This document shows, one piece after another, positions 23,658 through 39,962 of a stretch of 64,000 nt of DNA. The DNA comes from Candidatus Sulfotelmatobacter sp. (lineage in GTDB: Bacteria > Verrucomicrobiota > Verrucomicrobiia > Limisphaerales > UBA11358). Under the pieces are notes generated by a model, which was given only the letters and a program-made list of their open reading frames with translations, did no database searches and was not told the origin of the DNA. The DNA is taken from NCBI GenBank assembly GCA_035503455.1, contig DATJTK010000174.1:992-64991 (forward strand), given 5' to 3'. Both the position numbers and the translations under genes were made by a program. How positions within the stretch are numbered: the first letter of the stretch is position 1; each line of letters opens with the position of its first letter.

Positions 23658-25127
23658 ATGCAAATCGACGAGGCATTTGTGGATTCCCAGGCGACCAATG
23701 CGGCGGCAATCAAAAACGCGCGCCTGGTCGTCATCAAAAAGAAACTCGTCGGCCTGTTCAAATCCTCGGACGGCTCGCTGCTGTTCGGCGACTGCAAAGG
23801 CAGCGGCGCGGAAAACTACCGGCCTTCCGCGGATTTTTCGGACAGCACCAAACCCGTCTATCGCTGCACCTGCCCGAGCCATCAGTTTCCCTGCAAACAT
23901 TCCCTCGCCCTGCTCTACGCTTATGCCCAGGGACAGAAATTTACCGAGAAGGAGGTGCCGGCGGACATCGCTGAAAAGCGCGCCAAGATCGTCCAACGCA
24001 CTGAAAAAAAGAAGGTCGAAGCCGAAAAGCCTGACAAACCCGAAAAGCCTCACAAGGTCAATACCAGCGCGCTAATAAAGAAAATCGAAACACAGATTGG
24101 CGGCCTCGAATTGCTTGAATCGCTGGTGAACGATCTCGTCCGCTCCGGCCTTGGCACGCTCAACTCCAAGTCCGCGCGCCAAATGGAGGATCAGGCGAAG
24201 CAACTCGGCGACGCCTACCTGCCCGGCGCGCAGAATGCCCTCCACGCATTGACCGGACTTTTCTACCGCACGCAAATCAGTTCCCAGGACGAGTTGAAAC
24301 CCTCCGAACGCGAACAGGTTTACAGCGCCGCGCTCGACCAGTTGAATCGCCTGCAATCGCTGTGCAAGCAAGGGCGAAAATATTTGCAGAACCGGCTCGA
24401 TGAACCGGAACTTAAGCCGGAAACGGAGACGGACATTGCCGCATGGCTCGGGCACGCATGGCAATTGCGCGAACTGAAGGATGCAGGCCTCGTGCAGGCC
24501 AATGTCGAACTCCTGCAACTTGCCTTCAACTCGCACGATGACTGGACGCGCGGCGAATTTGTCGAGACCGGCGTTTGGATGAATTTGCAGACCGGGGCGG
24601 TGCAATTGACTCGCAACTATCGCCCGTATCGCGCGGCGAAGTACATTCGCGAAGACGATTCGTGTTTTCAGGTCATGATCTGCCCCGAGCTATGCATTTA
24701 CCCCGGCAACTTGAATCCGCGCATCCGATGGGAAGCGAGCGAGCCGCGGCCAACGGTCGTGGCCGACTTTGCCCGCGCCCGCGAGTTCGCAAAGCCCGAC
24801 CTGAAGGCCGTCATCAAGGACGTGAAGACCCAATTGAAATCGCCCCTGGGCGATCGCCGTCCGGTGGCATTGGTGAAATATCGCGCGCTCGGCAAAGCTG
24901 GTGAAGATGTCATCATAGAAGACGCTGCCGGCGAACGCCTCGTGCTCGCCGACGACGGCTATCCCGGAGATCCAGCCACGCTGCCGCTGCTGCCGATGCT
25001 GTCATCAGACATCCATCACGACCAGGCGATGCTCGTCCGCTTTCATCACAACCTGGACACCCAAAAGCTCCGCGCCAAACCGCTCAGTATCGTCACGGCG
25101 ACGGATGTAGTGAGGTTGACATATTAA
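23658..25127 (+). CDS. SWIM zinc-finger protein (YehQ-like)
   Basis: 489 aa with YRCTCPSHQFPCKHSLALLYAY (CxCxnCxH SWIM motif) near the N-terminus and a long helical C-terminal region. It is the first gene of the MoxR/VWA cluster. Confidence 0.8.
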   Translation: MQIDEAFVDSQATNAAAIKNARLVVIKKKLVGLFKSSDGSLLFGDCKGSGAENYRPSADFSDSTKPVYRCTCPSHQFPCKHSLALLYAYAQGQKFTEKEVPADIAEKRAKIVQRTEKKKVEAEKPDKPEKPHKVNTSALIKKIETQIGGLELLESLVNDLVRSGLGTLNSKSARQMEDQAKQLGDAYLPGAQNALHALTGLFYRTQISSQDELKPSEREQVYSAALDQLNRLQSLCKQGRKYLQNRLDEPELKPETETDIAAWLGHAWQLRELKDAGLVQANVELLQLAFNSHDDWTRGEFVETGVWMNLQTGAVQLTRNYRPYRAAKYIREDDSCFQVMICPELCIYPGNLNPRIRWEASEPRPTVVADFARAREFAKPDLKAVIKDVKTQLKSPLGDRRPVALVKYRALGKAGEDVIIEDAAGERLVLADDGYPGDPATLPLLPMLSSDIHHDQAMLVRFHHNLDTQKLRAKPLSIVTATDVVRLTY

Positions 25128-25245
25128 TATGTTAAAGCTCTCCCATTGTATGGACCGTCCAGAACCGAGAAGACTCTTGAGAACTGACCTGCCGTCTTGG
25201 AGTGTCTCGACGCGTCGGGATGACCCGCTTCCGAGACTCGCACCA

Positions 25246-25335
25246 CTTCGAATCGTCAATCGCCATTTGAAAGTCCAACGACGTCCGAAAGCGGTGTCGC
25301 GCAGACTTGCCACCGCACTCCAAGACGGCAAGCGC
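25246..25335 (+). repeat. About 90-bp dispersed repeat (cttcgaatcgtcaatcgccatttgaaagtccaacgacgtccgaaagcggtgtcgcgcagacttgccaccgcactccaagacggcaagcgc)
   Basis: A second copy lies inverted at 62227-62316 with only a handful of mismatches by eye. This copy sits inside the SWIM-HEAT intergenic gap. Confidence 0.75.
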
Positions 25336-25523
25336 GGAATGGACGGTTCATGGTCCCTCGCGGGTTCATTGCGCGAACGCACGATTCGCGAATTATTTAA
25401 ACTCAGTGTGAACCGTCACGCAGGACAGGCATCCTGCCTGCCGGTTCAGGGCGCATCCTGCGCCCAGTCAAACACGCGGCTGGAAGCCGCCTTAACCGGC
25501 AGGCAAGATGCCTGCCCTGCGCA

Positions 25524-27338
25524 ATGAGCATCGCCTTGATTGAAGAATCCGCGAAAGAAGTTCGCCGACTTGCCATCGCCGGCAGCCCGCTTGCTGTCGG
25601 AGATTTTCGGCTGAAAAAACTCATCCCGCCGCTGGAACAGGCCGGCGCGAAAGTTCCCGTGTTCGCGCAAGTCGCCAAAGCGATCAACGACGTCGTAAAC
25701 GCGACCGAGGCGGAGTCCGCCGCGCGCCTGCTAAACTTAAGCACGCTGCTCAATGCAATCCTCTATACTCAGGGCCAAACCAGCACGACCGGAGATTTCC
25801 AGAAACTCGAAATTTTTCCCTCCAAATGCTCCACCACACGGACCACCGCCCGCGTGCTCAAACCGTTGATCGAAGCGCTGTCATCGTCCGGCGGCGGACG
25901 ACTTGAAATCATTAAATCCGCTGTCGAACGCGGCGCGTTCAACGATCTGCGTCTCATCGATCCCGCGATCCGCGCGCTGGGTGACAATTATCCGGAAATC
26001 GCCGACCTGGTTGCGGAAAAAATTCTTCCCGCCTACGGCCCGGGAATCATTCCGCGCCTCAAGACCGGACTCGATCTCAAAGGCAAGAAACACGATGCGC
26101 GAAAACTGGAAGTGATGCACCGGCTTGATCCCGTCGGGACGCTCGATCTTTGCAAAAATGCGCTGGAGGATGGGTCACCCGAAGTCAAAATCGCCGCTAT
26201 CGCCTGCCTCGGGCAACACGAAGACTGCCTGCCGCTCGTGCTCGAACAGGCCAGCGCGAAGAACAAACAAGTCCGCGCCGCGGCGCTGGAAGCGCTCGCC
26301 GAACATGACCGTCCCGAGATTACGAAGATTTTCAGCGAACTGATCGGAGGCAAAGCGTTCGACATTCTCGTCCGCCCGTTCCGTCGGTTGCGCAACCGGC
26401 AGGTTTTGAATTCCCTATTGGATGAAGGTCGAACGAAGTTTGATCTGATTCTCAAAGGCGATTCACAGCAAATCTTACTCTTTCACGAGATTTTAAACTG
26501 TCTGGCCTCGCGGAGAGATAGCGAAGTAGAAAAATTTTTCCTGGAGATTTTCGCCAAATCAGTCGCACTAACAAAGCTAGCCTTGCACAACCTTTCCGTT
26601 AAAGTTAATGCGGTCCAAAACGCCCCGATACAAGGGGCTGATTTGATGGAGCGTCTGGTCGAGCGGGTTTACGGGATTGGTTCTCGCGCAGCACTGGAGG
26701 CCATTTTGGAAAGACGCGAGGACCTTCCAACGTCGGTATTTCCGTATGTGTTGCGGAGCGCTGTTCGGACATGGCCTCCGGACAAAGTTTATTCCGAATT
26801 TTCGCCTTTGCTCGAAGGAAAAACGGGGGCGGGAAAAGAAAAGCGCGAAATGTTGGAGGGATTTATCAACACGAGCCACGCCAGGTTGGAACAGCCACCA
26901 GACGCAGGCGAAGACGCTGATCGGCAATCGATGCCAGAGAGCCTGACATGGGACCCATGCTGGCTGGACGCTGCCATCAAGGCCGACTCGCGAGTAATAG
27001 TGTGCTGGCTGGCTCGGCCGAATCATATTGGGTCGTTAAACTATTTGTGGAAACTTGGAACGCCCAAGAGCGCCAACCACACGGCGCTGACCGTCCGGGC
27101 CCTCGCTCGATGCCAACATCCAAACGTGACAGACTTTTTCATTGGACAGGTGGCCCGAAAATCAAAAGGCGCGAACTATCTCGATTACGAATTACAAACA
27201 CTTCTCGAATCAGCGAAACACTTACCCGCATCAGATTTGCCGAAACTCGACGCGTTCGCCACGAAACTGGATGAAAAATTCGCAGACGCATACCTCGTCG
27301 CCATCGAGCCGTTACGCCGACCCAATCAACCCGACTGA
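25524..27338 (+). CDS. HEAT/ARM-like repeat protein, hypothetical
   Basis: 604 aa and all-helical in character, with HEAT-like units such as DGSPEVKIAAIACLGQHEDCLPLVLEQASAKNKQVRAAALEALAEHDRPE. It ends 11 nt before the AAA+ gene. Confidence 0.6.
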   Translation: MSIALIEESAKEVRRLAIAGSPLAVGDFRLKKLIPPLEQAGAKVPVFAQVAKAINDVVNATEAESAARLLNLSTLLNAILYTQGQTSTTGDFQKLEIFPSKCSTTRTTARVLKPLIEALSSSGGGRLEIIKSAVERGAFNDLRLIDPAIRALGDNYPEIADLVAEKILPAYGPGIIPRLKTGLDLKGKKHDARKLEVMHRLDPVGTLDLCKNALEDGSPEVKIAAIACLGQHEDCLPLVLEQASAKNKQVRAAALEALAEHDRPEITKIFSELIGGKAFDILVRPFRRLRNRQVLNSLLDEGRTKFDLILKGDSQQILLFHEILNCLASRRDSEVEKFFLEIFAKSVALTKLALHNLSVKVNAVQNAPIQGADLMERLVERVYGIGSRAALEAILERREDLPTSVFPYVLRSAVRTWPPDKVYSEFSPLLEGKTGAGKEKREMLEGFINTSHARLEQPPDAGEDADRQSMPESLTWDPCWLDAAIKADSRVIVCWLARPNHIGSLNYLWKLGTPKSANHTALTVRALARCQHPNVTDFFIGQVARKSKGANYLDYELQTLLESAKHLPASDLPKLDAFATKLDEKFADAYLVAIEPLRRPNQPD

Positions 27339-27349
27339 CCCTATTCATT

Positions 27350-28447
27350 ATGCCCAAGGAAACTCCAAACGACCTCCGCCAACCCGCCGAAACCCTCTAC
27401 GCCGAAGAACTCGACGCGTTGATTAAAGCCGAGAAGAATCCAGTGCCCGCCGGCTGGCGGATGTCGCCGCGCTCGGTGCTCACCTACATTTGCGGAGGCA
27501 AATGCGGCAAGCTCGATATCACGCCCAAATACATCGGCCATCAGCGCCTGGTGGAAATTGCGATCTCGACGCTCGTCACGGACCGCGCATTGCTGCTCAT
27601 CGGCGAACCGGGCACGGCCAAGTCGTGGCTCTCCGAACATCTCGCCGCCGCCATCAACGGCGATTCCACCAAAGTCGTGCAAGGCACGGCGGGCACGACT
27701 GAGGAACAAATTCGTTACACCTGGAATTACGCCATGCTCATCGCGCGCGGCCCGAGCAACGAGTCGCTCATCAAGAGCCCCATCTTCCGCGCCATGGAAT
27801 CGGGCAGCATCGCGCGCTTCGAGGAAGTCACCCGTTGCGCTTCGGAAGTGCAGGACGCATTGATTTCCATTCTATCCGAAAAACGGCTCTCCGTTCCCGA
27901 ACTGGCCACCGAAATCCCCGCTCAACGCGGATTCTCGGTGATCGCCACGGCCAACACGCGTGACCGCGGCGTCAACGACATGTCCGCCGCCTTGAAACGC
28001 CGCTACAATATCGTCGTGCTGCCCGCGCCGGCGGATTTGGAAACCGAAGTATCCATCGTCACCAAACGCGTGAAGGAACTCGCCGGCAATCTGCAATTGC
28101 GCGCCGAAATTCCGCATGAGGACGCCATCATCAAAATTGTGACCATCTTCCGTGAACTGCGCGCCGGCCAGACGCTCGACGGGAAGAACAAGGTCAAGAC
28201 ACCGTCGGGCGTTCTTTCAACCGCCGAAGCGATCTCATTGCTCGCCAACAGCATGGCGCTCTCCGGCAACTTCGGCGACGGCAATGTCAGCGATAACGAC
28301 CTCGCTTCCGGCCTGCAGGGCGCGGTCATCAAGGATGACGACAAGGACCTGATCGTCTGGAAAGATTATCTGGCCAACGTGATGAAGAAGCGCGGCGCAA
28401 CCTGGCGCGGGCTGTACTCGGCATGTACAGAACACGCGGGGGAATAG
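27350..28447 (+). CDS. MoxR-type AAA+ ATPase (AAA_5; YehL-like)
   Basis: Walker A LLLIGEPGTAKSWL, a Walker B-like IARFEEVTRC followed by VQDALISILSEKRLSV, and sensor ATANTRDRG. 365 aa. Confidence 0.88.
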   Translation: MPKETPNDLRQPAETLYAEELDALIKAEKNPVPAGWRMSPRSVLTYICGGKCGKLDITPKYIGHQRLVEIAISTLVTDRALLLIGEPGTAKSWLSEHLAAAINGDSTKVVQGTAGTTEEQIRYTWNYAMLIARGPSNESLIKSPIFRAMESGSIARFEEVTRCASEVQDALISILSEKRLSVPELATEIPAQRGFSVIATANTRDRGVNDMSAALKRRYNIVVLPAPADLETEVSIVTKRVKELAGNLQLRAEIPHEDAIIKIVTIFRELRAGQTLDGKNKVKTPSGVLSTAEAISLLANSMALSGNFGDGNVSDNDLASGLQGAVIKDDDKDLIVWKDYLANVMKKRGATWRGLYSACTEHAGE

Positions 28448-28459
28448 TATCCTCAATTG

Positions 28460-30829
28460 ATGAGTGCCGCGCCCCATATCTTTGGCGTCCGCCATCTTTC
28501 ACCGGCGGCAGCGTGGCATTTGCGGCAGTTGCTGGATCGCGTCCGCCCAAAGCTCGTGTTGATCGAAGGTTCGGACGACGCGGACGAATTGATTCATCAC
28601 ATCGTCAGCCCGCAATCGAAACTGCCGATTGCGATTCTTGCCTATACCGCCGACGCGCCGGTGCGGACGTTTGTTTATCCGCTGGCATCCTATAGCCCGG
28701 AATACCAGGCGCTCGTCTGGTGCCAGCAAAACAAAGCGAAGGCCCGTTTCATCGATTTGCCGTCGTCTGTTTTTCTCGGCCTGATGGACCGGGACGATGG
28801 GACGGCGCCGGTTGAAAAAGATAAACCTGAGGAAGCCGACGAAAAACAAAAAGGAAAGGATAAGCCTACGTTGGCCCAACTCGTTAAGGACGAGGACGAG
28901 GACGAGAAAGTTGTCGAACAAAAACCCAGGCGGGAATCTATTTATGACCGCCTCGCAGAACTGGCCGGCGAACCCGACTACGAAACCTATTGGGAACGTC
29001 ATTTCGAGCAGTTGCACGCCAATGACAGTTACCTGAACGCCGCGCGCAGTTACGGCGCGGAATTGCGAGAGATGGAGGATTTTTCCACGCGTCACGCTGC
29101 CGAAAACCTGGTGCGCGAGGCCTACATGCGACGGAAGATTCAACAAGCAATCGCCGAAGGCTTCAAACCGGAGCAAATCGTGGTAGTGACCGGCGCATTT
29201 CATGCCACTGCCCTTGGCGCCGATTTGCCGCCGATGACCGATGAGGAATTCGCCAAACTCCGCAAGCGCGCGTCCAAAATGACGCTGATGCCGTATTCAT
29301 TTTTCAAATTGTCGTCGCAATCCGGTTACGGCGCGGGGAACCATGCGCCCGCTTACTTCGAACTCGTATGGAATTCCTTCAACGAGAATACAGCGCCCGA
29401 GTTGCCCGAATTATTTCTCACGAGCGTCGCCCGCGAGTTGCGGTCATCCGGCACTTTTCGTTCAACTGCCGAGGTCATTGATGGCGTTCGCCTGGCCGAG
29501 ACGATGGCCGGGATGAAGAGTTCGCGTCCGACCTTGCGTGAACTCCAGGATGCCGCAGTAACGTTGCTCGGCCAGGGTGATCCGGCGGTCGTTCGCGAAT
29601 CATTGTTGCGCGTGGAAGTGGGCACTGCCATCGGCGCGCTGGCCAAGGGCGTCAGTCAAACTTCGATTCAGGACGATTTTTACCGTGAATTGAGCCGGCT
29701 GAAATTGGAGCAATTCAAGACGGGCGTGAAGCGCGATCTCGATCTCGACCTGCGGGAGAATCGCCGGGTCAAGAGCGCGGAAGCTGCGTTCCTCGATTTG
29801 CATCGCTCCAGTTTTCTGCATCGGCTTGCGGTGCTCGAAGTGCCATTCGCGCAAAAGCAGGCGGTGCGACAGGACGGAACAACCTGGGCCGAACGCTGGG
29901 CGCTGCAATGGACGCCGGAGGCCGAAATCGCGATTGTCGAAGCGGTGTTGCTGGGCGAGACGATCGAACTGGCGGTCGCCTTCAAGTTTAAGCAGCAGCT
30001 TGAGAAATGCACGGTGATTGCTGAAGCCGCCCAGGTCATTCGGCGCGCATGCGAATGCGGGATGAGCGGCTCAATTGAACTCGCGCGCCAGACCCTGCAA
30101 CGGCTCGCGAACGATTCTTCGGAATTCACAGCATTGGCCGGCGCGGCCGCTGAACTGGGTCTGGTGATTCGCTACGGCGACGTCCGCCAATTCGACGCCG
30201 AGCCGCTCAAACCGTTGCTCGAACAGTTGTTTCTCGAAGGCGCGCTCGGGCTCGTCGGCGCGTCGAACTGCGATCTTGCCGCCGCAAAGGCGATGCTCAT
30301 AGGCGTCAACGAAATGAACAAAGTCGCGCTGGATTACACGTCGTTGATTGACGAACCGCTCTGGATATCCGAACTCCAAAAGCTCGCCCAGGCCGACCAT
30401 TTGAATCCAATGCTGTCCGGTTACGCCTGCGCCCTGCTCGTCGAGCGTGGATTGATTTCGAACGAAGAACTGGCGAAGGAAGTTTCGCGCCGGCTGTCGC
30501 CGGGCATCGCCGCCGATTTGGGCGCAGGATGGTTTGAGGGCCTGGCGCAGCGAAATCGTTACGCGTTGCTGACGCGCCTCGCGCTCTGGGAACAACTCGA
30601 TAGTTACGTCGGCGCATTGACGGAGGAGGAATTCAAGCGCGCGCTCGTGTTTCTTCGCCGCGCGTTTGGCGATTTTTCGCCGCAGGAAAAACACAGCATC
30701 ACCGAAAACCTCGGCGAAATCTGGGGCGTGAACAAGGATGCGGCGAGCGAAGTGTTGAGCGCGGAACTGAACGAAGACGAAAAGAAAAAGCTCGATGAAC
30801 TGAGTGATTTCAATTTTGAGGAACTGTAA
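28460..30829 (+). CDS. DUF5682 family protein (YehM-like)
   Basis: About 789 aa. The N-terminus HIFGVRHLSPAAAWHLRQLLDRVRPKLVLIEGSDD fits the DUF5682 pattern as I remember it. There is an acidic insert (DEDEDE) and a long helical C-terminus. The track start at 28457 is TTG; ATG is at 28460. Confidence 0.72.
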   Translation: MSAAPHIFGVRHLSPAAAWHLRQLLDRVRPKLVLIEGSDDADELIHHIVSPQSKLPIAILAYTADAPVRTFVYPLASYSPEYQALVWCQQNKAKARFIDLPSSVFLGLMDRDDGTAPVEKDKPEEADEKQKGKDKPTLAQLVKDEDEDEKVVEQKPRRESIYDRLAELAGEPDYETYWERHFEQLHANDSYLNAARSYGAELREMEDFSTRHAAENLVREAYMRRKIQQAIAEGFKPEQIVVVTGAFHATALGADLPPMTDEEFAKLRKRASKMTLMPYSFFKLSSQSGYGAGNHAPAYFELVWNSFNENTAPELPELFLTSVARELRSSGTFRSTAEVIDGVRLAETMAGMKSSRPTLRELQDAAVTLLGQGDPAVVRESLLRVEVGTAIGALAKGVSQTSIQDDFYRELSRLKLEQFKTGVKRDLDLDLRENRRVKSAEAAFLDLHRSSFLHRLAVLEVPFAQKQAVRQDGTTWAERWALQWTPEAEIAIVEAVLLGETIELAVAFKFKQQLEKCTVIAEAAQVIRRACECGMSGSIELARQTLQRLANDSSEFTALAGAAAELGLVIRYGDVRQFDAEPLKPLLEQLFLEGALGLVGASNCDLAAAKAMLIGVNEMNKVALDYTSLIDEPLWISELQKLAQADHLNPMLSGYACALLVERGLISNEELAKEVSRRLSPGIAADLGAGWFEGLAQRNRYALLTRLALWEQLDSYVGALTEEEFKRALVFLRRAFGDFSPQEKHSITENLGEIWGVNKDAASEVLSAELNEDEKKKLDELSDFNFEEL

Positions 30830-32034
30830 TGCCAAACCCGGTGAACCAGGAACAATTGAAGCGCTGGCGGCTGATTCTCGGCCGGCACGCGCAGGATTCC
30901 CTTGCCCAGATGGGCGGCGGCGGACTCGAACTTTCGCCTGACCAAATTGGCATGGACGAAGCGCTCGCGGCCATTTACGACGAATCTTCCGGCGAAGCCG
31001 ACGGACAGCGTGGCCGGCAACGAAGCGCAGGCCTCGGCCCTTCCGCGCCAAATCTGGCAAAGTGGCTGGGGGACATCCGCAATTATTTCAAGGAAGACGT
31101 CGTCACCGTCATCCAAAACGACGCCATCGAGCGCAAAGGACTCACACAACTCCTATTTGAACCGGAATTGCTGAAGAATGTCGATCCGAATCCGCAACTC
31201 GTCGGCACGTTGATGTCGCTGAAAGGCCGCATCCCGGAACGGACGAAGGAAACGGCGCGCATGGTCGTGCGCGCGGTGGTCGAAAAGATCAAACGCCTGC
31301 TCGAACAACGCATCCGCCAGGCCGTGCTGGGCGCGCTCAATCGAAAAGAACATTCGCCCCTGCCCAACTCCGCGAACATCGACTGGAAATGGACCATTGG
31401 CCGCAACTTGAAAAATTACCAGCCGGCGCTTGGAACGATCGTGCCGGAGCGAGTTTACTTTTACTCGCGCGCCCAGCGCTCGAACAATTGGACCGTCATC
31501 GTCTGCATGGACCAAAGCGGTTCGATGGCCGAATCGGTCGTTTACGGCTCCGTGACCGGCTCGATTTTCGCCTCACTGCCCGCGCTCGACACTCGAGTGG
31601 TTGCGTTCGACACCAATATCGTGGACCTGACTGAACAATGCGGCAACGACCCGGTGGATATGATTTTCGGCGTCCAACTCGGCGGCGGGACGGACATCAA
31701 CAAAGCCATGGCATATTGCGAGCAATTCATCACCGACCCCGGCCAGACCATTTTTTTCCTTATCAGCGACCTTATCGAAGGCGGCAATCAGTCCCAACTC
31801 ATCCGCCGCATGCATGAAATGGCGGCCTCGGGCGTGCGTGTCATCACGCTGCTGGCTTTGTCAGACAGCGGCATCCCAATGTTTGACGAACAAGTCGCCA
31901 AAAAACTATCCGCCGGAGGAGTGCCCTGTTTCGGTTGCACTCCCAACAAACTCCCCGAACTCATTGAGGGCGTTCTCAAGAAGCATGATTTGAAAGCCCT
32001 GGCCGCGCGCCTGGCGACGAAGAAGGAGAAGTAA
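30829..32034 (+). CDS. VWA domain protein, CoxE-like (YehP-like)
   Basis: 401 aa with MIDAS VCMDQSGSM, then GGGTDINKAM and FLISDLIEGG. Its start overlaps the previous stop (TAATG). Confidence 0.85.
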   Translation: MPNPVNQEQLKRWRLILGRHAQDSLAQMGGGGLELSPDQIGMDEALAAIYDESSGEADGQRGRQRSAGLGPSAPNLAKWLGDIRNYFKEDVVTVIQNDAIERKGLTQLLFEPELLKNVDPNPQLVGTLMSLKGRIPERTKETARMVVRAVVEKIKRLLEQRIRQAVLGALNRKEHSPLPNSANIDWKWTIGRNLKNYQPALGTIVPERVYFYSRAQRSNNWTVIVCMDQSGSMAESVVYGSVTGSIFASLPALDTRVVAFDTNIVDLTEQCGNDPVDMIFGVQLGGGTDINKAMAYCEQFITDPGQTIFFLISDLIEGGNQSQLIRRMHEMAASGVRVITLLALSDSGIPMFDEQVAKKLSAGGVPCFGCTPNKLPELIEGVLKKHDLKALAARLATKKEK

Positions 32035-32433: not shown

Positions 32434-34095
32434 TTGACCGAAACAGAAAACAAGATTTTTGATATGGAAACCTCAACAAGTCCGGCGGTCAGGTCTCAAC
32501 CAGCCGCGAATCCATTTTTCGGCTGGCTCCATTCGATGTGCAAACGGATCATGGCGGGCAATCCATTCTATTTGGCGAGCGCCGGACTTCTCCTCTACGG
32601 CATCAACCAATTGACTACGGATTCCAAATTGGTTGGCGCGGAGTTTCCGATGTTGCGGTTCAATTTCTGCGCCCTGTTTCTGTACGAAATCATGCTGGTC
32701 GGCACCGCCATAATGCTGATTCGCCGCAGGATTTGGTATGACGCCCTGTTGTTATTTGGCCTGACCAATCTCTTTGTCATCGTGCCATTCAGCCTGATCA
32801 GTCGGGCAGTGTTTCTCAGTTCGCACCTCGCGCTGGCCATGAGCATTTGCGGCGCTGCGCTGGCGGTCGCCAAATTTTGGGCGTTCAAACGATATGCGCC
32901 CGAGCTTAATTTGCCACGAAGGCTTCTATTCTTCGGCGTGTTATTGCTGCTTGTGAACGCTTCGGCCCCGCTGCTTTTCAAAAGAATCGCACTGGACCTG
33001 GACCATGTTAGCAAGTGGCTTAACTTCATCTGGGAATTTCTCCTCCCGGCATTGGCTGGACTCGGAATATTCCTTCCGCGTCAGGCATGGCGGACCGGGA
33101 GGTCCGCCCTACCGTTTCGCGGTGGCACGCCGGGAGGAGAAAAATGGCTGCCCACTGCGATTTTCTCCGGCTGGACGATCGTTACCGCTTTTCACTTCGG
33201 CGGCATCGGATACTCGAACAGTTACGTTTGGAATTGGCCGCTGCTGGTGCCAATAGCTTGGGTGGTAACATGGACAGCCTATGTTCGAATCACGGATTTC
33301 ATCACCAGGCCAAACCGGCTCATTGAACAAATCGTGTTGTCCGTGCCTCTGTTGCCGCCTTTACTGGCCGTCCAATCGGAAGGGATATTAACGGTATTTG
33401 CGGGGTTAAATCTCGTTATTTACGGGTCACTGTTTATTCGCAAGGATCGAAATTTCCTGGCCCTGACCCGATTGCTTGGCGCCATTGCGATTCTTGCCGG
33501 CACTTTGCCAATGTCCTGGATTAGTCACATCGTGCCGAGCGTTGAGCGCCCGGAATGGGCCATGCTTTCGGTATTTGCGTGTTTCTTCTGGCTCATATTC
33601 TGGTCTCGCGATCCTCGCATAGCGTTGTTCGGCGCGTTGAGTCTAATCGGCCTCTGTTTTTGGTATGCCCCGGAATTCGGGCAGTACGCCTTCCAGGTGG
33701 CGCTGGTGTCATTGCTGGCCCACAGCCTGCGCTGGGAAGAGCAAGTACACAAGGGCGCGACGATACTTTGTTTTGTCGCGAGCATGCTATGGTCGTTGGT
33801 GTCGTGTTCGTGGTTATTTGACTCGGTCCACCCGGAGCGGCTTCTCGTTGACTCGGCTGCAGGGGTACTTCTAGCGGTCTATTTGCTGCACGCGACCATA
33901 TTTCGACGCTGGAAACGCTTGATCGTTCCGATTAGCGCAGCGTCTGTCCTGGCCTCGGAGCCAGCCATGATTGTGGGAAAGTGGCTTAACGGTGATACGC
34001 CTGGAATGCTCGCCGTCATCGGCAGTTTTATATTATTCGCGCTGGGCAGCATCGCTGCGTTCTCCAAACCAAAATGGTGGCCTCCCGGCCCGTAG
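32434..34095 (+). CDS. Polytopic integral membrane protein, hypothetical
   Basis: 553 aa with at least 12 hydrophobic helices and no motif I recognise. The start codon is non-ATG in the track. The stop codon lies inside the terminal repeat of the element at 34092. Confidence 0.6.
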   Translation: MTETENKIFDMETSTSPAVRSQPAANPFFGWLHSMCKRIMAGNPFYLASAGLLLYGINQLTTDSKLVGAEFPMLRFNFCALFLYEIMLVGTAIMLIRRRIWYDALLLFGLTNLFVIVPFSLISRAVFLSSHLALAMSICGAALAVAKFWAFKRYAPELNLPRRLLFFGVLLLLVNASAPLLFKRIALDLDHVSKWLNFIWEFLLPALAGLGIFLPRQAWRTGRSALPFRGGTPGGEKWLPTAIFSGWTIVTAFHFGGIGYSNSYVWNWPLLVPIAWVVTWTAYVRITDFITRPNRLIEQIVLSVPLLPPLLAVQSEGILTVFAGLNLVIYGSLFIRKDRNFLALTRLLGAIAILAGTLPMSWISHIVPSVERPEWAMLSVFACFFWLIFWSRDPRIALFGALSLIGLCFWYAPEFGQYAFQVALVSLLAHSLRWEEQVHKGATILCFVASMLWSLVSCSWLFDSVHPERLLVDSAAGVLLAVYLLHATIFRRWKRLIVPISAASVLASEPAMIVGKWLNGDTPGMLAVIGSFILFALGSIAAFSKPKWWPPGP

Positions 34096-34272
34096 CGCAG
34101 GTTTCCAAACCTGCCGTATCGCCGATTTCTAAATCGGCTAGCCGTCCGAACGCGGACCACCGCAAGCTCCCGGAACACCGTGGCGTGGGTTTCCAAATCG
34201 GCAGTCGAGCGACCACGAACGATCAGCAGGTTTGGAAACCTGCGATACAGCAGACTTGGAAGTCTGCGCTAC
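34092..34272. repeat. MITE/REP-like element with terminal inverted repeats GTAGCGCAG...CTGCGCTAC and internal GCAGGTTTCCAAACCTGC-type hairpins
   Basis: The ends read gtagcgcaggtttccaaacctgccgtatcgccgatttctaaatcggc... and ...cagcaggtttggaaacctgcgatacagcagacttggaagtctgcgctac. Related full copy at 40985-41147, half copy at 55995-56061. Confidence 0.65.
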
Positions 34273-34691
34273 GGTTCATGGCCCAGCTCTGCTTCAAGTT
34301 CGCTTACTCGATACTGTACGTTGTCACCGTAGCCCCACCCGATTCTTTGGGCACTAGAGCCCAATTTTTGAATGCGCTCCCGAAAGCGAGGATATGATTC
34401 GGGACATTCGCGCCAAAGGTGCTGAGCCATTTCGTTCAGCACGGACTCCAGACTGGTATAAAACGGCGCCTCTATATCGCCAAATTGTTTTGTAAACTCG
34501 GTGCCATTTTCCACATAGGTCAGCATTAAATCGATCGTGCCTTCCAAATTGCCAGTAGCTTTGCGGTAATCGCGAATGGCCTTGCGCGCTTCAGCGAGTT
34601 TGAGTTTTCCAAAGCCACGTGACGGGAAGAATTGCTCCACAATCTTGCGACGATATTTTTCCAGACCCGGTCCGGCCTTTTCATCGGCCAT
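34269..34691 (-). CDS. Hypothetical helical protein
   Basis: 140 aa. KLKLAEARKAIRDYRKATGNLEGTIDLMLTYVENGTEFTKQFGDIEAPFYTSLESVLNEM looks like a conserved helical family (possibly DUF6155-like, from memory, unverified). Confidence 0.5.
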   Translation of the reverse strand: MADEKAGPGLEKYRRKIVEQFFPSRGFGKLKLAEARKAIRDYRKATGNLEGTIDLMLTYVENGTEFTKQFGDIEAPFYTSLESVLNEMAQHLWRECPESYPRFRERIQKLGSSAQRIGWGYGDNVQYRVSELEAELGHEP

Positions 34692-34855: not shown

Positions 34856-35311
34856 TCATTTTAGAAAATCCGTCAGCGCCCGCCAGTGGCTTCCCGCGTC
34901 GAATGCTTCTCTATCGATCAACCGAAGCCGTCTGGTTAAATCTTCAAGGTCTTGTTTGGCGGAAGAAAAATATTCGTTCAACAGTCTAAAGCTTGTCGCA
35001 AACCGATCAACACTCGTGTTTAGAACGCTCAGCGGCTGTTCCAATTCCACGTCAATCCGTACAACGGAACCGCCTATCTCGTCGGCGCAAACGAACGCGC
35101 TGCCAGCATTCGGGAATTTCTCCTCACCAAATACTCGGTATCGGAGCCAGTCCGGTGGTAAAGGGGGCCCGCCGACAACAGGTTCTGTGGTCACTGGCCG
35201 CAAATGCCACATGAGTCTTGAGAAATTAAATGAAACCCATGTTTCCCGAAACTGCCACCTTGCCCGATTCGGCAGCGAATCGACCAATTGCTTTTGAAAT
35301 TCGGGATTCAC
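34856..35311 (-). CDS. Hypothetical protein, possibly SUKH/SMI1-KNR4-like immunity-type fold
   Basis: 151 aa. LPPDWLRYRVFGEEKFPNAGSAFVCADEIGGSVVRIDVE...LNEYF vaguely resembles SUKH family patterns. This is a weak call. Confidence 0.4.
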   Translation of the reverse strand: MNPEFQKQLVDSLPNRARWQFRETWVSFNFSRLMWHLRPVTTEPVVGGPPLPPDWLRYRVFGEEKFPNAGSAFVCADEIGGSVVRIDVELEQPLSVLNTSVDRFATSFRLLNEYFSSAKQDLEDLTRRLRLIDREAFDAGSHWRALTDFLK

Positions 35312-35394: not shown

Positions 35395-35395
35395 A

Positions 35396-36724
35396 TCAAA
35401 CCTGGCCCGGCGTTTTCTCCTCGTAACCTTCATCCGTCTTTTGTTCGATGAGAAGCGCCATCGCATCGGCTGCGGCTTGCTCGTCTGCAAATGTTTTCGT
35501 CTTGGATTGGCCGGCTGAACCAATGCGTCCCCATCGCGTAGTCATGTTGTTGCCCGATTGTGAAACTTCCCAGAATTTGCTGGAGCTGCCTTCGACAAAC
35601 TCGAAGTAGCGGGGTTTGGAATCGCTGCCACCCGAAATCGAAACCGCCGGTGGCGCTTCGGGTTTCGTGGACACCGGCGATTGCACACTTTTAAGGGCGA
35701 CATCATGCCGCACGCCGACCCAACTTGGAAAACGCGGCACGCCCGCGTCAGAAAGCTCCTGGTAGCGAAAGGTCACGGTGGCGCCGATGCCCGGCGGATT
35801 CTCGCGTTCGCCGTCGCTGAAACCCGTGCCAATGGCGAAATCGGCGCCATCCGGCAGGCGCACCAACAACGCGCCCATTCGTCCCTTATGGCGTCCCGCG
35901 CCGGCCTGATGCCCAATGACAATGGCTTCCGCATCATGAAACGTTTTGACCTTCAGCAGCGTGGTTGAGCGGCCGGCAACATACTTCGATCCCGGTTGCC
36001 GGAGCATTAGCCCCTCGCCTCCGAGTGCCTCGACGCGCTTCAGTTCCGCGCGCAGGGCATCCAGGTTTTTGCATCGTTCGTGGACATGCTCCCGGGCGAA
36101 TTTTGCCACGGCCCTTGCAAGCGCATCCTTCAGAAAGGCAAGACGCTCCTCGAAACCGCCATTCGCCGCGGGCGCATCGAAGATGAGAAAGCGCACTTCC
36201 TTCCAAAGCTCGTTCTTGTCCTGGCGCCGGACGATGCTGACGGTGCGTTGAAACTTCTTGCGGTCAATCCAAAGTTCCCCATCAAGCGGCACCGCGGGCA
36301 GACCCTCAATGAACCAATCCGGCGCGTAATAGATGTGGCCCTGGCGCGAAAGAAATTGTTTGCCGTCCCAATAGGCGCGCACACCGTCGAGTTTTTCGCT
36401 CATCCACCAGCCGGACAAATCGGCGGCGTTGTCCCAACTCTCAGCCAGCAACAGCGGCGGGCCGGAATCAGCGTCCGCTTCACCGTCCGCAGTCTGCGCT
36501 GCGCGAACAGGACGTTGCGGCAATGCGCCACCGATGCGCGCTTCCTCCGCCGCATCTCCGCGCAGTTTGCGCAGGTGCTTGCAGGTCCTTTTCTCGATTC
36601 CGATGGATTGGTTGCGCCAGGCCGGGCAAGTGCATGAATAAACGCCACCGGTATTTTTTAAAACGTAAGGCTTCGCTCCCGAGCCCTGCATTTCCGTTGA
36701 TTCTCCGTCTTGTAGGTCGGGCAT
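35396..36724 (-). CDS. ATP-dependent DNA ligase (LigE/minimal type) with N-terminal SWIM zinc finger and C-terminal WGR domain
   Basis: 442 aa. SWIM motif YSCTCPAWRNQSIGIEKRTCKH (C31-x-C33-x14-C48-x-H50, nt about 36575-36634). Adenylation motif MSEKLDGVRAYW (K111, nt 36392-36394), then EGLMLRQ, LLKVKT and an OB region. The C-terminal WGR is YFEFVEGSSSKFWEVSQSGNNMTTRWGRIGSAGQSKTKTFADEQAAADAMALLIEQKTDEGYEE (nt about 35420-35632). Confidence 0.85.
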   Translation of the reverse strand: MPDLQDGESTEMQGSGAKPYVLKNTGGVYSCTCPAWRNQSIGIEKRTCKHLRKLRGDAAEEARIGGALPQRPVRAAQTADGEADADSGPPLLLAESWDNAADLSGWWMSEKLDGVRAYWDGKQFLSRQGHIYYAPDWFIEGLPAVPLDGELWIDRKKFQRTVSIVRRQDKNELWKEVRFLIFDAPAANGGFEERLAFLKDALARAVAKFAREHVHERCKNLDALRAELKRVEALGGEGLMLRQPGSKYVAGRSTTLLKVKTFHDAEAIVIGHQAGAGRHKGRMGALLVRLPDGADFAIGTGFSDGERENPPGIGATVTFRYQELSDAGVPRFPSWVGVRHDVALKSVQSPVSTKPEAPPAVSISGGSDSKPRYFEFVEGSSSKFWEVSQSGNNMTTRWGRIGSAGQSKTKTFADEQAAADAMALLIEQKTDEGYEEKTPGQV

Positions 36725-37098: not shown

Positions 37099-38670
37099 CT
37101 ATTGCTCCGACTCCCTCTTCTTCACCGCTTTCTTCTTCGGTTTGGCCTCCGCACTTTCGGCTTCCGCTGGAACTGGAGCCGCAACCGCAACCGCCTTCGG
37201 TCCGCCGTACAGGTCGAAACCTTTGGTGATATTTTCTTCGATCAACTTTTTCGTCAGCGCCTCGGCCCGAGTCTCAGTGTGGGCGAACAGAGTTGTGACT
37301 TCGAGCGGCGTCTTGCGACCGGCGGAAAAATCCGTCCAAAAGATGACGTAGGGAAATGCCCCAGCCGTCGCGGGCCGCCGTCCGACCACCAGTTTGCGCA
37401 CGGCCAAAGCGCCTTTGACTTCCTTGCTATAAACCTCGCGGCGCACGACTTCGAGGACCGGCAGATTCCGATTGATCAATTCAGGCGCCGCAATCTCGCG
37501 GCCGGAAAGCTGGGCGATCCGCACGGCCTGCGGAGTGAAATCCTTGTCCGCGCGCAGGCGATGAAACGTCGGCAGCAACAACCTCGGACTCGCGGCGAGC
37601 CCGTCAAAACTCCAGCGCTGGTTATTCCAGCCAAAGACCTGCTGTCCGCTGGCTTCCTCGTCGGGCGGCAGAATGTCTTCCGCCTCCACTTCCACGACGA
37701 AACCGGGCTTCACGAAGCGCACGGGACGGCCATCGCTGTCGCTCATCGCCAGCGGCGCATCCACTCGCAGCGTGGACAACCGCCCCAGCCAGTCTACGCG
37801 GTCCTGGTCATTGAAACCCGAGCCGACGCGCGCGATCGATTGCAATTGCAGCCCGCGTTCGCTCGCCGGATAAGCCAAGGCCGTCAGAAGCGACATCATG
37901 CCGTAATTGCCTTCAAACTCGCCTTCCACAAAACCAACTACCGCCGCGTCCACGGTCCGGCGCGGTTTAAGTTTGCAGACTTCAGGCCGATCCAACCGGC
38001 GGATGACGAGACCTTCCAGCCCGCCGGAAGTCTTCTGATCAAACAGTTTCGGCAGGTCCGCGCCGCTCACCTCGCCACCTTCGGCGCGATGTACCAGCTT
38101 GTCCATATTGGTGCCGGCCAATTCGCCGATTAATTTCCAAATCGTGAGAAAATCAGATTGATGCACGCGCAGGTCGCGTCCGTCGTGCATAATTACATCG
38201 AGCACGGCCAGGCGGAAGCGGCCCGCATCGGCCGGGTCATTGGAATAACTGGCGCGCGTGACGTCAGCGCTCGCGCAACGGCGGCCATCCACAGTCTCGC
38301 GAAGATAAAGTTCGGCGCGCAATAGCGCTTTCTTCGTACCGTGCGCCTTGAGATTCGCCGCCAACTCCTTCAAACACGGCAGTCCGACACGAGCCCGACC
38401 CGATGGCGCATTGAATGTGAAGATGTCCGGACTGCGTCCCGCTTCAAAATATACGAACACACCTTCCCCATCGTATTTGGTGGTTTCGAGCACGCGACTG
38501 TCCGGGCCGTAACGCGCGGGCAGGTCCGCGGGTTTGATGGCAATGAAACGATTCGAGACTTCGACGTCGTATTGCTCGGCCACTTCCATGAGCACGCGGT
38601 CGGTCACGGCGGCGCGCGGCCCGAAGGCGTAGTCGCCGCTCTTTTTGGTCAATCTGGCCAGGTCAATCAT
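37099..38670 (-). CDS. ATP-dependent DNA ligase (nucleotidyltransferase + OB) with about 130-aa C-terminal extension and Lys-rich tail
   Basis: 523 aa with motif I ETTKYDGEG (K65, nt 38476-38478), LRAELY, EGLVIRR, CKLKPRR and motif VI-like PTFHRLRADKD. The tail is AEAKPKKKAVKKRESEQ. Its start overlaps the upstream stop (ATGA at 38667-38670). Confidence 0.8.
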   Translation of the reverse strand: MIDLARLTKKSGDYAFGPRAAVTDRVLMEVAEQYDVEVSNRFIAIKPADLPARYGPDSRVLETTKYDGEGVFVYFEAGRSPDIFTFNAPSGRARVGLPCLKELAANLKAHGTKKALLRAELYLRETVDGRRCASADVTRASYSNDPADAGRFRLAVLDVIMHDGRDLRVHQSDFLTIWKLIGELAGTNMDKLVHRAEGGEVSGADLPKLFDQKTSGGLEGLVIRRLDRPEVCKLKPRRTVDAAVVGFVEGEFEGNYGMMSLLTALAYPASERGLQLQSIARVGSGFNDQDRVDWLGRLSTLRVDAPLAMSDSDGRPVRFVKPGFVVEVEAEDILPPDEEASGQQVFGWNNQRWSFDGLAASPRLLLPTFHRLRADKDFTPQAVRIAQLSGREIAAPELINRNLPVLEVVRREVYSKEVKGALAVRKLVVGRRPATAGAFPYVIFWTDFSAGRKTPLEVTTLFAHTETRAEALTKKLIEENITKGFDLYGGPKAVAVAAPVPAEAESAEAKPKKKAVKKRESEQ

Positions 38671-39371
38671 GTTGCGGACGCCGGCGCTGCCGGCCGTTTG
38701 AGTTCCTGATCCGACAACAACAACAGCAGACGATAACGCGCATCGTCGCCCTTACCCTCCACTTCACCATAAAGAAATCCGCGAAACGGCGTGCCTCCGT
38801 CACGCAGCACCAGCGGCCCCGCGCCTTTCGGGCCGGCGCCCACGAGCGCCATGCTTTGGCTTTCCTGCAGCGACTTCGCCAGGCCATGAAGAAAATCAAA
38901 CGTCAAGCCGTCGGTATGGACAAGCTGTTGCATCCCGCGAAAGACAAATTTCGTCAGGCATTCCTTCACCGGCATGCGGCGAACGATTTTCAGCGGCTGC
39001 GTCGTGTCCACGTTCGCCGTGCGGAATACGCGGCTGCGCCGCTCCTTCTCCTGTCCGTCCGGCGCGTAAACCACCTCGACCTCCTTGAATTCAGTCGCGA
39101 TCGCCGGCTGCGCGCTGCGGGTATCGAGGTAAACCGCTGTTGCGTCGCGCATCAATCGACCCGCAAGCTGGAAATCCAACTCCGGATCGCCCTCAATCAA
39201 TTGCGCGGAATTCGCGGACGCCATGAAGTTTTGCCCATTCAACGCCTGCACGCGTTTGACTTTGCCTGCGCTGGTCACCTGCTCCAGCGGCGCGGCGTTC
39301 TTCTCAGCCATGGGCGAACTTAGGCCCACGCGCGCGCTACGGCCTTCGTTTTCGAGATGAAGCGTGAACAT
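38667..39371 (-). CDS. Hypothetical protein (orphan), second gene of the ligase operon
   Basis: 234-aa ORF, translationally coupled to the ligase gene, with no recognisable motif. Its composition looks like a real protein rather than an antisense artefact. Confidence 0.6.
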   Translation of the reverse strand: MFTLHLENEGRSARVGLSSPMAEKNAAPLEQVTSAGKVKRVQALNGQNFMASANSAQLIEGDPELDFQLAGRLMRDATAVYLDTRSAQPAIATEFKEVEVVYAPDGQEKERRSRVFRTANVDTTQPLKIVRRMPVKECLTKFVFRGMQQLVHTDGLTFDFLHGLAKSLQESQSMALVGAGPKGAGPLVLRDGGTPFRGFLYGEVEGKGDDARYRLLLLLSDQELKRPAAPASAT

Positions 39372-39386
39372 GTTTCCTCCGTTACG

Positions 39387-39962
39387 TTACATCATGCTGA
39401 AATCCAGCGGATCAGCCGCTTCCTCGGCGCCGCCCGCCGGGGCATCAAAAAATTGATACGCCACAGTGCGCCCGGCCATCGGGCAGGCTTTGAGCTGGCC
39501 CACGAGAAGAAACGCGCCATCATCGCGCACGAGCAGCAGGACATCGCGCGGGCGCGCCGACTTGCGATAATTGAAAGTTCCTCGATAGAGGCCAGGAGCA
39601 AGCCCGCCCGCGTCAACGGGATAAACATCCGTCGTCAGGAAACGCGCGAGCGTCTCCAGCGGCACGGCTTCGAGCGGTTCGCCGCCATCGAACGAACTTG
39701 GACGCAACTCAAGTTTCTGTCCGGCGCAATGAATCTCCGGCGTTTCCGCGGGCGAACCGTCATTGTCCACCGAAGTCATCGCCACCTGGCTTTTGCGAAG
39801 AGTCGCGCCATCGGGCAACAGCCAGCCGCGCTCAAGCCGCTGTCCGTTTTGCTCGACGACATGGTCCACGCGCCCGTAAAGGTCGTCCTTGCCAATTTTG
39901 GATTCGAGAGTGGCGGCGATTTCCTTGCCACCGACAGAAAGCTTTAATGATTTAGCAGCCAT
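39387..39962 (-). CDS. Hypothetical protein (orphan), first gene of the ligase operon
   Basis: 191-aa ORF lying 15 nt upstream of the next gene, with no recognisable motif and an acidic C-terminus (GGAEEAADPLDFSMM). Confidence 0.6.
   Translation of the reverse strand: MAAKSLKLSVGGKEIAATLESKIGKDDLYGRVDHVVEQNGQRLERGWLLPDGATLRKSQVAMTSVDNDGSPAETPEIHCAGQKLELRPSSFDGGEPLEAVPLETLARFLTTDVYPVDAGGLAPGLYRGTFNYRKSARPRDVLLLVRDDGAFLLVGQLKACPMAGRTVAYQFFDAPAGGAEEAADPLDFSMM

Follow-up and report, generated by a model that had tools for sequence, protein, structure and literature searches.

A yehLMPQ-type MoxR/VWA cassette and SWIM/WGR-tagged DNA ligases as recurrent but optional neighbours

We analysed a stretch of 64,000 nucleotides (the window) from Candidatus Sulfotelmatobacter sp. 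(assembly GCA_035503455.1, contig DATJTK010000174.1, positions 992 to 64,991), whose closest named relatives are Verrucomicrobiae. Five plus-strand genes at 23658-32034 form a tight operon in a Pfam scan of the window and are called the cassette here. They face a ligase set on the minus strand (35396-39962), in which, in order of coordinates, a WGR-bearing DNA ligase precedes a trio made up of a second DNA ligase, orf234 and orf191. An initial annotation had tentatively joined all of these genes into one 16-kb super-module that shares its domains with the E. coli molR-yehI-yehLMPQ locus and might act on DNA nicks or breaks. Every domain it had named was confirmed at the coordinates given, and the distance from the VWA stop codon (32034) to the 3′ end of the WGR ligase (35396) is 3.4 kb, as it had given. 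The link between cassette and ligases proved recurrent, independently arising and sometimes operonic, yet asymmetric and optional, and the cassette usually stands alone. The genes of the two sets are as follows.

23658..25127, plus strand: cassette gene 1, SWIM zinc-finger protein of 489 amino acids (aa); PF04434, 23.9 bits (cutoff 19.6)
25524..27338, plus strand: cassette gene 2, HEAT-repeat alpha-solenoid protein, 604 aa; Pfam HEAT_2, E 3e-9
27350..28447, plus strand: cassette gene 3, MoxR-type AAA+ ATPase, 365 aa, YehL homologue; Pfam AAA_5, E 3e-39
28457..30829, plus strand: cassette gene 4, DUF5682 (PF18934) protein, 790 aa, YehM homologue; E 6e-149, 498 bits against a cutoff of 26
30829..32034, plus strand: cassette gene 5, VWA (CoxE-type) protein, 401 aa, YehP homologue; Pfam VWA_CoxE, E 3e-45
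35396..36724, minus strand: WGR ligase, 442 aa, with a SWIM-like finger, a LigE-type ATP-dependent DNA ligase core (nucleotidyltransferase (NTase) and OB_2 domains) and a C-terminal WGR domain; Pfam, NCBIfam
37099..38670, minus strand: second complete ATP-dependent DNA ligase, 523 aa; Pfam DNA_ligase_A_C, NCBIfam NHEJ-ligase
38667..39371, minus strand: orf234, 234 aa, middle gene of the trio and partner of the second ligase; no Pfam or PDB match
39387..39962, minus strand: orf191, 191 aa, first gene of the trio; no Pfam or PDB match

The initial annotation had described the E. coli locus correctly, with its WGR and DUF4132 domains. In strain K-12 the order is yehF (PF05406, which is WGR), the pseudogene yehH, yehI (DUF4132), yehK, yehL (MoxR), yehM, yehP (VWA) and yehQ (SWIM). 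BLASTP aligned the window MoxR protein with YehL (40% identity, E 4e-82), the DUF5682 protein with YehM (24%, E 2e-31), the VWA protein with YehP (35%, E 1e-70) and the WGR domain of the ligase with that of YehF (42%, E 5e-11). The window SWIM and HEAT proteins had no BLASTP similarity to YehQ or YehI. The two loci have in common a MoxR AAA_5 ATPase, a DUF5682 protein, a CoxE-type VWA protein, a SWIM protein and a large alpha-solenoid partner, and a WGR domain is found at both. They differ in gene order, which is DUF4132, AAA, DUF5682, VWA, SWIM in E. coli and SWIM, solenoid, AAA, DUF5682, VWA in the window. They also differ in that the E. coli WGR belongs to MolR/YehF and not to a ligase, a gene that the E. 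coli locus lacks.

Related cassettes follow one or the other of these orders. Type I (DUF4132, AAA, DUF5682, VWA, SWIM) occurs in E. coli, Iodobacter and B. mycoides, with variants in Allorhizobium and Streptomyces; in the Allorhizobium (A. vitis) operon, the DUF4132 protein starts with a WGR domain (E 8e-19). Type II (SWIM, DUF5691, AAA, DUF5682, VWA), to which the window belongs, occurs in Deinococcus, Hymenobacter, Rhizobium and Methylosinus plasmids. The Methylosinus VWA gene, absent from the plasmid gene table, was found by tblastn, and Hymenobacter encodes one long DUF5691-annotated protein whose N terminus aligns with the window SWIM protein. The window HEAT protein occupies the slot of DUF5691 or DUF4132 proteins in other cassettes, and the NCBI label at this position is DUF5691 in Deinococcus, Rhizobium and Methylosinus. 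The HEAT protein itself matched only HEAT_2 and HEAT in Pfam, with no DUF5691 or DUF4132 match even at E<=10. The bpMoxR match of the window ATPase is confined to the Walker A region (profile positions 10-59 of 205).

When one genome per species was scanned with a 13-sequence DUF5682 alignment, 80 loci were returned, in which the same five genes lie in the same order in Verrucomicrobiota, Planctomycetota and Bacillota. In at least 60 related loci the cassette opens with the SWIM gene, whose position is thus conserved. DUF5682 identity is 79-86% in Verrucomicrobiota, 53-61% in Planctomycetota and 51-56% in Paenibacillus/Clostridia; MoxR proteins are 70-81% identical between these groups (L091-L170; loci are cited by number throughout). 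Since DUF5682 identities of 51-61% and MoxR identities of 70-81% go together with an identical gene order, these comparisons imply that the whole five-gene unit has been transferred horizontally between phyla. The cassette is an autonomous, horizontally mobile module spread across phyla. Clustering of the flanking ORFs at cassette loci yielded no recurrent neighbour family, and the few flanks common to Paenibacillus loci are unrelated housekeeping genes. The DUF5682 family comprises ~3,100 clusters at 50% identity in many phyla, including E. coli K-12, and has no assigned function.

The WGR ligase matched DNA_ligase_A_M, OB_2 (E 3e-26) and WGR (E 1e-18, residues 372-439) in Pfam. It scored 338 bits against NCBIfam PRK09125 (cutoff 200), and its core is ~40% identical to Lig E of Neisseria and Alteromonas. 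Its homologues number more than 7,700, and identity is 78-100% among the best 120. A local WGR hidden Markov model (HMM) confirmed that the window holds a single WGR domain and that it lies on this ligase. The same protein had been credited with the window's second SWIM finger, a claim that stands for the motif and fails at the Pfam threshold. The N terminus, CTCPAWRNQSIGIEKRTCKH, carries a CxC-x14-CxH signature that is invariant in 71 of 71 full-length homologues (57-100% identity) and occurs just twice among the window ORFs. Its flank aligns with the SWIM region of the cassette SWIM protein (40% over 30 aa, E 1e-4). The Pfam SWIM model (PF04434), in contrast, gave the finger a sub-threshold 10.2 bits (cutoff 19.6, E 0.57).

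The N-terminal region of this ligase (MPDLQDGESTEMQGSGAKPY...) is hydrophilic and contains the zinc-finger motif; no signal peptide is apparent, no signal-peptide predictor having been applied. As an invariant SWIM-like finger takes the place of a signal peptide at the N terminus, we predict a cytoplasmic location for the SWIM-ligase-WGR protein, unlike that of the periplasmic Lig E. The finger is the constant appendage of this ligase, and the cassette for its part always encodes a SWIM protein. The WGR domain, unlike the finger, is missing in 13 of 84 ligase relatives, two of which (L104 and L068) are cassette-linked. About 15% of SWIM-ligase relatives stop directly after the OB (oligonucleotide-binding) domain, without WGR. 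The relatives without an intact WGR domain are L040, L042, L047-L049, L052, L054-L056, L068, L074-L076 and L104, and L049 has just a vestigial WGR tail (…IEERTGEGYVERKP). Because L049 retains this tail, the distribution suggests that WGR has been lost repeatedly among SWIM-ligases.

The sequence of the second ligase shows motifs I (KYDG), III, IIIa, IV, V and VI, and its homologues in L145 and L068 match DNA_ligase_A_M. A C-terminal domain of ~80 aa (REVY.KE.KG…FS..R..PL…N..KGW/F; window 37099-37500) is kept from Verrucomicrobia to Bacillota (homologues in L145, L146 and L068); in the window, an acidic, Ala/Glu/Lys-rich tail follows it. We considered whether this domain could be a degenerate WGR and rejected the idea: hhalign gave a probability of 11% and aligned just a 22-column terminal helix, and the local WGR HMM had no match on the second ligase at E<=1. 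A PDB sequence search with the second ligase also had no match. For orf234, 419 homologues were found, the top 120 at >=79% identity, and this gene accompanies the second ligase even in Bacillota (35-37% identity). An AlphaFold2 (AF2) model of orf234, built from 36 homologues at >=79% identity, had a mean predicted local distance difference test score (pLDDT) of 38.5 and was unusable. The complete trio occurs together in L003, L008, L021, L023, L024, L048, L068, L145, L146 and L178. In a plasmid collection we found Lig E and phage-type ligases only and no SWIM-Lig-WGR protein. Scans of viral contigs for the second ligase and DUF5682 found no relatives.

We counted the linkage from the ligase side in a metagenome scan anchored on the WGR ligase, which gave 80 loci with ligases 57-84% identical to the window's, and clustered ORFs all-against-all over 84 related metagenomic loci. 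The most frequent conserved neighbours were VWA (12 loci), the second ligase (11), DUF5682 (11), MoxR (9), orf234 (7), the HEAT protein (7) and orf191 (6). Besides shadow ORFs overlapping these neighbours, no other family occurred in more than six ligase loci. Cassette genes were present in 13 of 82 non-redundant ligase loci, with 626 kb of flank in total, against ~0.56 expected (Poisson P ~5e-14, or ~3e-5 when only six independent events are counted). On a neighbour-joining ligase tree, cassette-linked ligases fall at no fewer than six separate positions among unlinked ones. Ligases accompany the cassette in roughly half of the informative ligase loci. In our judgement, the linkage of ligase and cassette is very probably non-random.

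The ligases and the cassette are combined in at least six layouts. The cassettes concerned come from divergent lineages, with DUF5682 proteins 25-40% identical to that of the window, and orthologous ligase genes adjoin at least three non-orthologous cassette lineages. The convergent layout of the window recurs in L003, L008, L010, L073, L179 and L180, and a divergent one is found in L024. In other loci the VWA gene is followed by the ligase in the same direction, with gaps of 145 bp in L019, 75 bp in L070 and ~10-18 bp in L082; L104, a metagenome-assembled genome (MAG) from Planctomycetota, has this layout as well. The L082 cassette is just 49/25/37% identical to the window's, and the L070 VWA protein only 43%. 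A type-I, B. mycoides-like cassette runs into ligases in L023 and L013, where the VWA protein is 50% identical to the B. mycoides type. L023 carries VWA, a YehQ-like SWIM gene, orf191, orf234, the second ligase and the WGR ligase on one strand; L013 has a partial type-I cassette and the WGR ligase only. The trio lies upstream of the cassette and co-directional with it in L145/L146 (Bacillota) and L068, and L068 carries on one strand the SWIM-ligase, the trio, a BRCT-pentapeptide protein, a 369-aa protein, MoxR and DUF5682. From their spacing and orientation, several of these layouts look co-transcribed. The BRCT-pentapeptide protein of L068 (15698-17755, 685 aa) has an N-terminal BRCT domain and pentapeptide repeats and is a possible DNA mimic.

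We favour, with a moderate degree of confidence, a reading in which two separable modules are juxtaposed and the ligase set would serve the cassette as an optional accessory in the sealing of DNA nicks or breaks. A number of observations weigh against it. In the cassette-anchored set of 84 loci from three phyla, in which ligase and WGR genes were sought within 10 kb by local profile HMMs and tblastn, a ligase was nearby in only three, from two independent lineages (L104, L145 and L146), a count that is not significant alone (P ~0.07). Apart from the ligase's own, none of the 84 loci had a WGR domain by the local HMM, so that the association of WGR proteins with cassettes within 10 kb, which the initial annotation had put up for checking, did not materialise, and WGR proteins in general are ruled out as companions of type-II cassettes. 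Nor can WGR be an obligatory connector of ligase and cassette, because 13 of the 84 ligase relatives, L104 and L068 among them, are without it. Close relatives of the window cassette (L175, L176, L177 and L093) have the cassette alone, and on three long contigs from close relatives (DUF5682 80-88% identical) no ligase lies within 10 kb of it. One relative contig of 3.5 Mb carries the trio ~75 kb from the cassette, with no WGR ligase beside the trio. On the ligase side, nine loci lack a cassette even though their flanks reach 5 kb or more in both directions, the loci are the 80 best matches and neither a random nor a phylogenetically corrected sample, and the chance expectation of ~0.56 rests on an assumed two randomly placed cassettes per 5 Mb.

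An obligate 16-kb super-module is therefore untenable, with 81 of 84 cassette loci lacking a ligase and the trio ~75 kb away on one contig. The proximity that had been taken as a sign of a functional link has mixed support, in the excess seen from the ligase side and the variety of layouts on one hand and the three of 84 cassette loci on the other. The same division appears among relatives, where the two gene sets are linked in several layouts, while three close relatives have no ligase within 10 kb of the cassette. The three cassette-side loci are themselves compact: in L104 the SWIM-ligase lies 350-700 bp past the VWA gene on the same strand, and in L145/L146 (Clostridia/Bacillota MAGs) homologues of orf191, orf234 and the second ligase immediately precede the SWIM gene, read in the same direction and spaced 38-80 bp apart.

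Whether the cassette and the ligases share a pathway acting on DNA nicks or breaks is a separate matter, which we regard as plausible at somewhat below even confidence. WGR is the nick/5′-phosphate reader of PARP enzymes. Each accessory domain of the ligase has a counterpart in the cassette: the SWIM subunit has a SWIM domain, and the DUF4132 solenoid can carry a fused WGR. Because WGR, a BRCT protein and two complete DNA ligases recur at cassette loci, broken or nicked DNA is the most economical common theme, and we infer a mechanism of nick or break handling. The MoxR ATPase and its VWA adaptor would remodel or assemble a large scaffold (the solenoids, SWIM and DUF5682 proteins) at nucleic-acid lesions, in keeping with MoxR ATPases and VWA partners being ATP-driven remodellers that act through a metal-ion-dependent adhesion site (MIDAS) adaptor, as in CoxD/E, NorQ/D, CbbQ/O and RavA/ViaA (PMC7159879). 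The WGR domain and the SWIM finger would target or dock the ligase, which, where present, would then seal the nick or break. Type-I cassettes (E. coli MolR, Allorhizobium) would have the WGR on their own DUF4132 solenoid and not on a ligase.

Several known systems resemble parts of this arrangement. Accessory ligase operons include Ku-LigD, LigC-PrimPolC and Lhr-LigB, and RNA repair is represented by rsr(Ro, vWA)-rtcB. The likeness is an ATP-dependent ligase with dedicated partners and, in Ro/RtcB, a ligase paired with a vWA protein; the difference is that no Ku, primase-polymerase, Lhr helicase, RtcB or TROVE was detected in the window set and that orf191 and orf234 belong to no recognisable family. 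DNA ligase III has an N-terminal zinc finger and a BRCT domain, and PARP1 has zinc fingers, BRCT and WGR. The window protein likewise has its ligase core between a zinc finger and a domain that reads breaks, WGR is held in common with PARPs, and a BRCT protein is encoded in L068. The window finger is, however, SWIM-type rather than PARP-type and there is no PARP catalytic domain, so that the analogy is one of architecture only. The MoxR-VWA pairs CoxD/CoxE, NorQ/NorD, CbbQ/CbbO and RavA/ViaA likewise place an AAA_5 MoxR gene beside a CoxE-type VWA gene, whereas the window encodes no metalloenzyme client nearby. The third components of the ternary systems described by Kaur et al. (2020; PMC7159879) are VMAP, iSTAND, FtsH and beta-propeller proteins, in place of which the window has SWIM, DUF5682 and HEAT proteins; Pfam detected no VMAP, iSTAND, FtsH or beta-propeller third component with effector domains in the window operon. 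SWIM, WGR and YehL go unmentioned in that paper (Kaur et al., 2020; PMC7159879).

The ligase has a closer precedent in the NT-OB_2-WGR cluster, in which WGR has been described on delta-proteobacterial and Planctomycetia ligases (Williamson & Leiros 2020, PMC7470946). This cluster and Lig E share the minimal NTase and OB_2 core with the window ligase, whose C-terminal WGR fits the description in the passages concerned (PMC7470946). Lig E differs in being periplasmic and without appended domains, whereas the window ligase carries a SWIM-like finger and WGR. The passages on WGR in that article name neither a SWIM finger nor a MoxR/VWA neighbourhood (PMC7470946). The YehL MoxR subfamily and the NT-OB_2-WGR ligases are each already on record as uncharacterised (PMC7470946). 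Our literature search found no paper linking a MoxR cassette with ligases and none giving DUF5682 or yehLMPQ a function.

The remaining ORFs of the region lie within the cassette or between it and the ligase set.

25129..25527, plus strand: 'orf132', arginine-rich pseudo-ORF between the SWIM and HEAT genes, in a probable ~400-bp repeat-element insertion
32434..34095, plus strand: orf553, 553 aa, filler in the slot between cassette and ligase; no family match
34269..34691, minus strand: orf140; no family match
34856..35311, minus strand: SUKH-4-like immunity-protein ORF, 151 aa; Pfam SUKH-4, E 1e-6

The small genes between the two sets had been suggested as accessory or immunity components, which their distribution does not bear out. 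orf553 has no match in Pfam, NCBIfam or PADLOC, and its homologues are restricted to one close relative (L003/L004). A local HMM of orf140 matched the window and its duplicate locus L002 only, so that this gene is confined to the window contig. The SUKH-4 ORF, likewise confined to this contig, is not annotated as a gene in its ENA record and has no homologues in related loci. In relatives, the slot holds orf553 (L003), a WD40 gene (L179) or a HEAT-like gene (L180), or is empty (L008 and L073). Judged by this distribution, orf553, orf140 and the SUKH-4 ORF are lineage-specific fillers and not conserved components. Within the cassette, 'orf132' has no Pfam match; bases 25226-25335 have an inverted copy at 62227-62335 (91% identical), 25419-25521 form an imperfect palindrome, and the segment is missing from the SWIM-HEAT junction in L019, L008 and L073. 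It is probably no real gene and represents a repeat-element insertion in the operon, which looks like a small miniature inverted-repeat transposable element (MITE) or repetitive extragenic palindromic (REP) element. Conflict-type small genes are inserted at the cassette-ligase locus in single genomes: the SUKH-4 ORF in the window and, in L003 (9265-9856), a DUF433/PIN toxin-antitoxin (TA) pair between its two ligase genes. A promoter and terminator consensus scan of 31.9-40.3 kb found the region no richer than shuffled sequence.

One explanation of the adjacency is that it carries no functional meaning, and that synteny inherited in one Verrucomicrobial lineage combines with accessory genes settling in the same variable regions. 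The window operons are convergent and 3.4 kb apart and are therefore not co-transcribed; the convergent junction is a variable slot whose contents are unrelated from locus to locus (orf553, orf140 and SUKH-4 in the window, WD40 in L179, HEAT-like in L180), with TA modules, an integrase and repeat elements in the vicinity. Most cassettes are without a nearby ligase, as are about half of the informative ligase loci without a cassette. What this explanation leaves unaccounted for is the adjacency to at least three non-orthologous cassette lineages, the co-directional gaps of ~10-145 bp in L082, L070 and L019, the trio-cassette operon of Bacillota, the prominence of cassette genes as the ligase's most frequent neighbours and the fusion of WGR to DUF4132 inside a cassette. 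We consider it unlikely, if to be reckoned with. It is distinctly improbable, in our estimate, that the cassette is instead a conflict system, directed against mobile elements or toward stress-induced suicide and switched by MoxR/VWA, with the ligases as add-ons that mend nicks made by the system itself or by an attacker, or that work on the ends of invading DNA. MoxR-vWA pairs have been proposed as threshold switches in conflict systems (PMC7159879), and the cassette is patchy and horizontally transferred, with 51-61% identity between Verrucomicrobiota, Planctomycetota and Paenibacillus. Plasmid cassettes adjoin insertion sequence (IS) elements, TA modules, recombinases, a type I restriction-modification (R-M) system and Rhs/immunity genes, and a SUKH-4 immunity ORF and PIN/DUF433 TA genes have been inserted at the locus.

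The defence searches point the other way. A scan of ten proteins (the five cassette proteins, orf132, orf553, the two ligases and orf234, but not orf140, the SUKH-4 ORF or orf191) against the 5,027 defence models of PADLOC-DB v2 gave nothing above noise, the two marginal matches having E values of 0.004 and 0.001 at 14 bits. We identified no toxin-like effector domain, and the viral contigs scanned with the second ligase and DUF5682 held no relatives. The cassette and ligase proteins are 78-95% conserved across many contigs, which fits housekeeping-type purifying selection better than arms-race turnover. A further proposal, that the module handles RNA or ADP-ribosylated nucleic-acid ends and not plain DNA nicks, would liken it to the RtcB/Ro (vWA) RNA-repair operons or to the reversal of an NAD-dependent end modification. 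In bacterial RNA-repair operons, RtcB is accompanied by the vWA-domain protein Ro60, and WGR is otherwise a PARP domain. The ligase-cassette pairs of L179/L180 are embedded among NAD/ADP-ribose genes, Tpt1 lies by the L094 cassette, and the L068 homologue of the second ligase also scores on Pfam RNA_ligase (E 8e-6). Such NAD/ADP-ribose genes are, however, found in one sub-lineage only, and the window has none of them. The first ligase strongly matches LigE-type DNA ligases (338 bits against a cutoff of 200, ~40% identity to Lig E), and the second has a DNA-ligase OB domain and motif VI. We rate an RNA or ADP-ribose role as very unlikely.

We return to the preferred reading, in which the ligase set is an optional accessory of a separable cassette. 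A bolder version, which we put forward as a doubtful but specific possibility, is that the yehLMPQ/MolR-type cassette itself would be a DNA-lesion processing machine, with an AAA+/VWA scaffold, a WGR reader and zinc-finger/WGR ligases recruited in some lineages. The sites would be nicks, breaks or protein-blocked DNA ends, DUF5682 might be a Tiki-like hydrolase, and the whole could be a bacterial counterpart of the nick-sensor logic of eukaryotic PARP/Lig3. The YehL cassette is widespread, and the OB_2 ligases that bear WGR make up a large class that is still uncharacterised; their recurrent coupling provides the first concrete, testable functional hypothesis for both. If it is true, the known range of MoxR-VWA chaperone systems would widen from the maturation of metalloenzymes to the repair of nucleic acids. 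Should the link be merely positional, the cassette is still delimited as an autonomous five-gene mobile unit and the intervening small genes as fillers.

The idea of a hydrolase derives from the N-terminal domain of the DUF5682 protein (window 28457-29250). This domain has invariant GxxH motifs (GIRH near residue 10 and GAxH at 246-249), and in an alignment of family members E37 and H249 are invariant. Across 33 diverse DUF5682 members, the only recurring secondary Pfam matches were to the Tiki/TraB/ChaN superfamily, all of them sub-threshold (Cofac_haem_bdg, E 0.018; TraB_PrgY_gumN in two of the 33 members, E 0.058). The AF2 model (mean pLDDT 65.8) has an N-terminal alpha/beta domain and a C-terminal alpha-solenoid, with a confident helical repeat at residues 500-720. 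A PDB sequence search with the DUF5682 profile had no match, and a Foldseek search of PDB with the full-length model returned generic alpha-solenoids only (E>0.05). Possibly, the N-terminal domain has a Tiki/TraB-like hydrolase fold. As Foldseek found nothing significant, such a fold is unproven, and the proposal therefore draws solely on the motifs and the sub-threshold Pfam matches.

In relatives, a variable ORF of 78-213 aa that belongs to no family often sits between the MoxR and DUF5682 genes (L175, 9348-9989; L179, 15993-16427; L180, 16174-16569; L087, 11759-11995; L088, 11362-11973). The window junction has no inserted ORF and a gap of just 9 bp.

Other genes were seen near individual cassettes. 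In L179 (1-9775) and L180 (1-9879), the ligase-cassette pair lies inside a cluster of NAD/ADP-ribose genes that encode NAD kinase, NADAR, NUDIX (NrtR-like), Macro, ADP-ribosylglycohydrolase, Tpt1/KptA and a nicotinamide mononucleotide (NMN) transporter; an NAD synthase gene lies on the opposite side. When all loci were checked, this cluster was confined to one sub-lineage (2-3 loci) and was not in the window. A Tpt1 gene lies beside the cassette in L094, and in Hymenobacter (L088) and Allorhizobium (L173) the cassette is closely preceded by NUDIX genes. Finally, R2K-clade ATP-grasp genes occur a few kb upstream of two unrelated cassettes (L082, 2200-3504; L176, 1895-2632), and in L176 HNH and Band_7 genes also lie upstream of the cassette.

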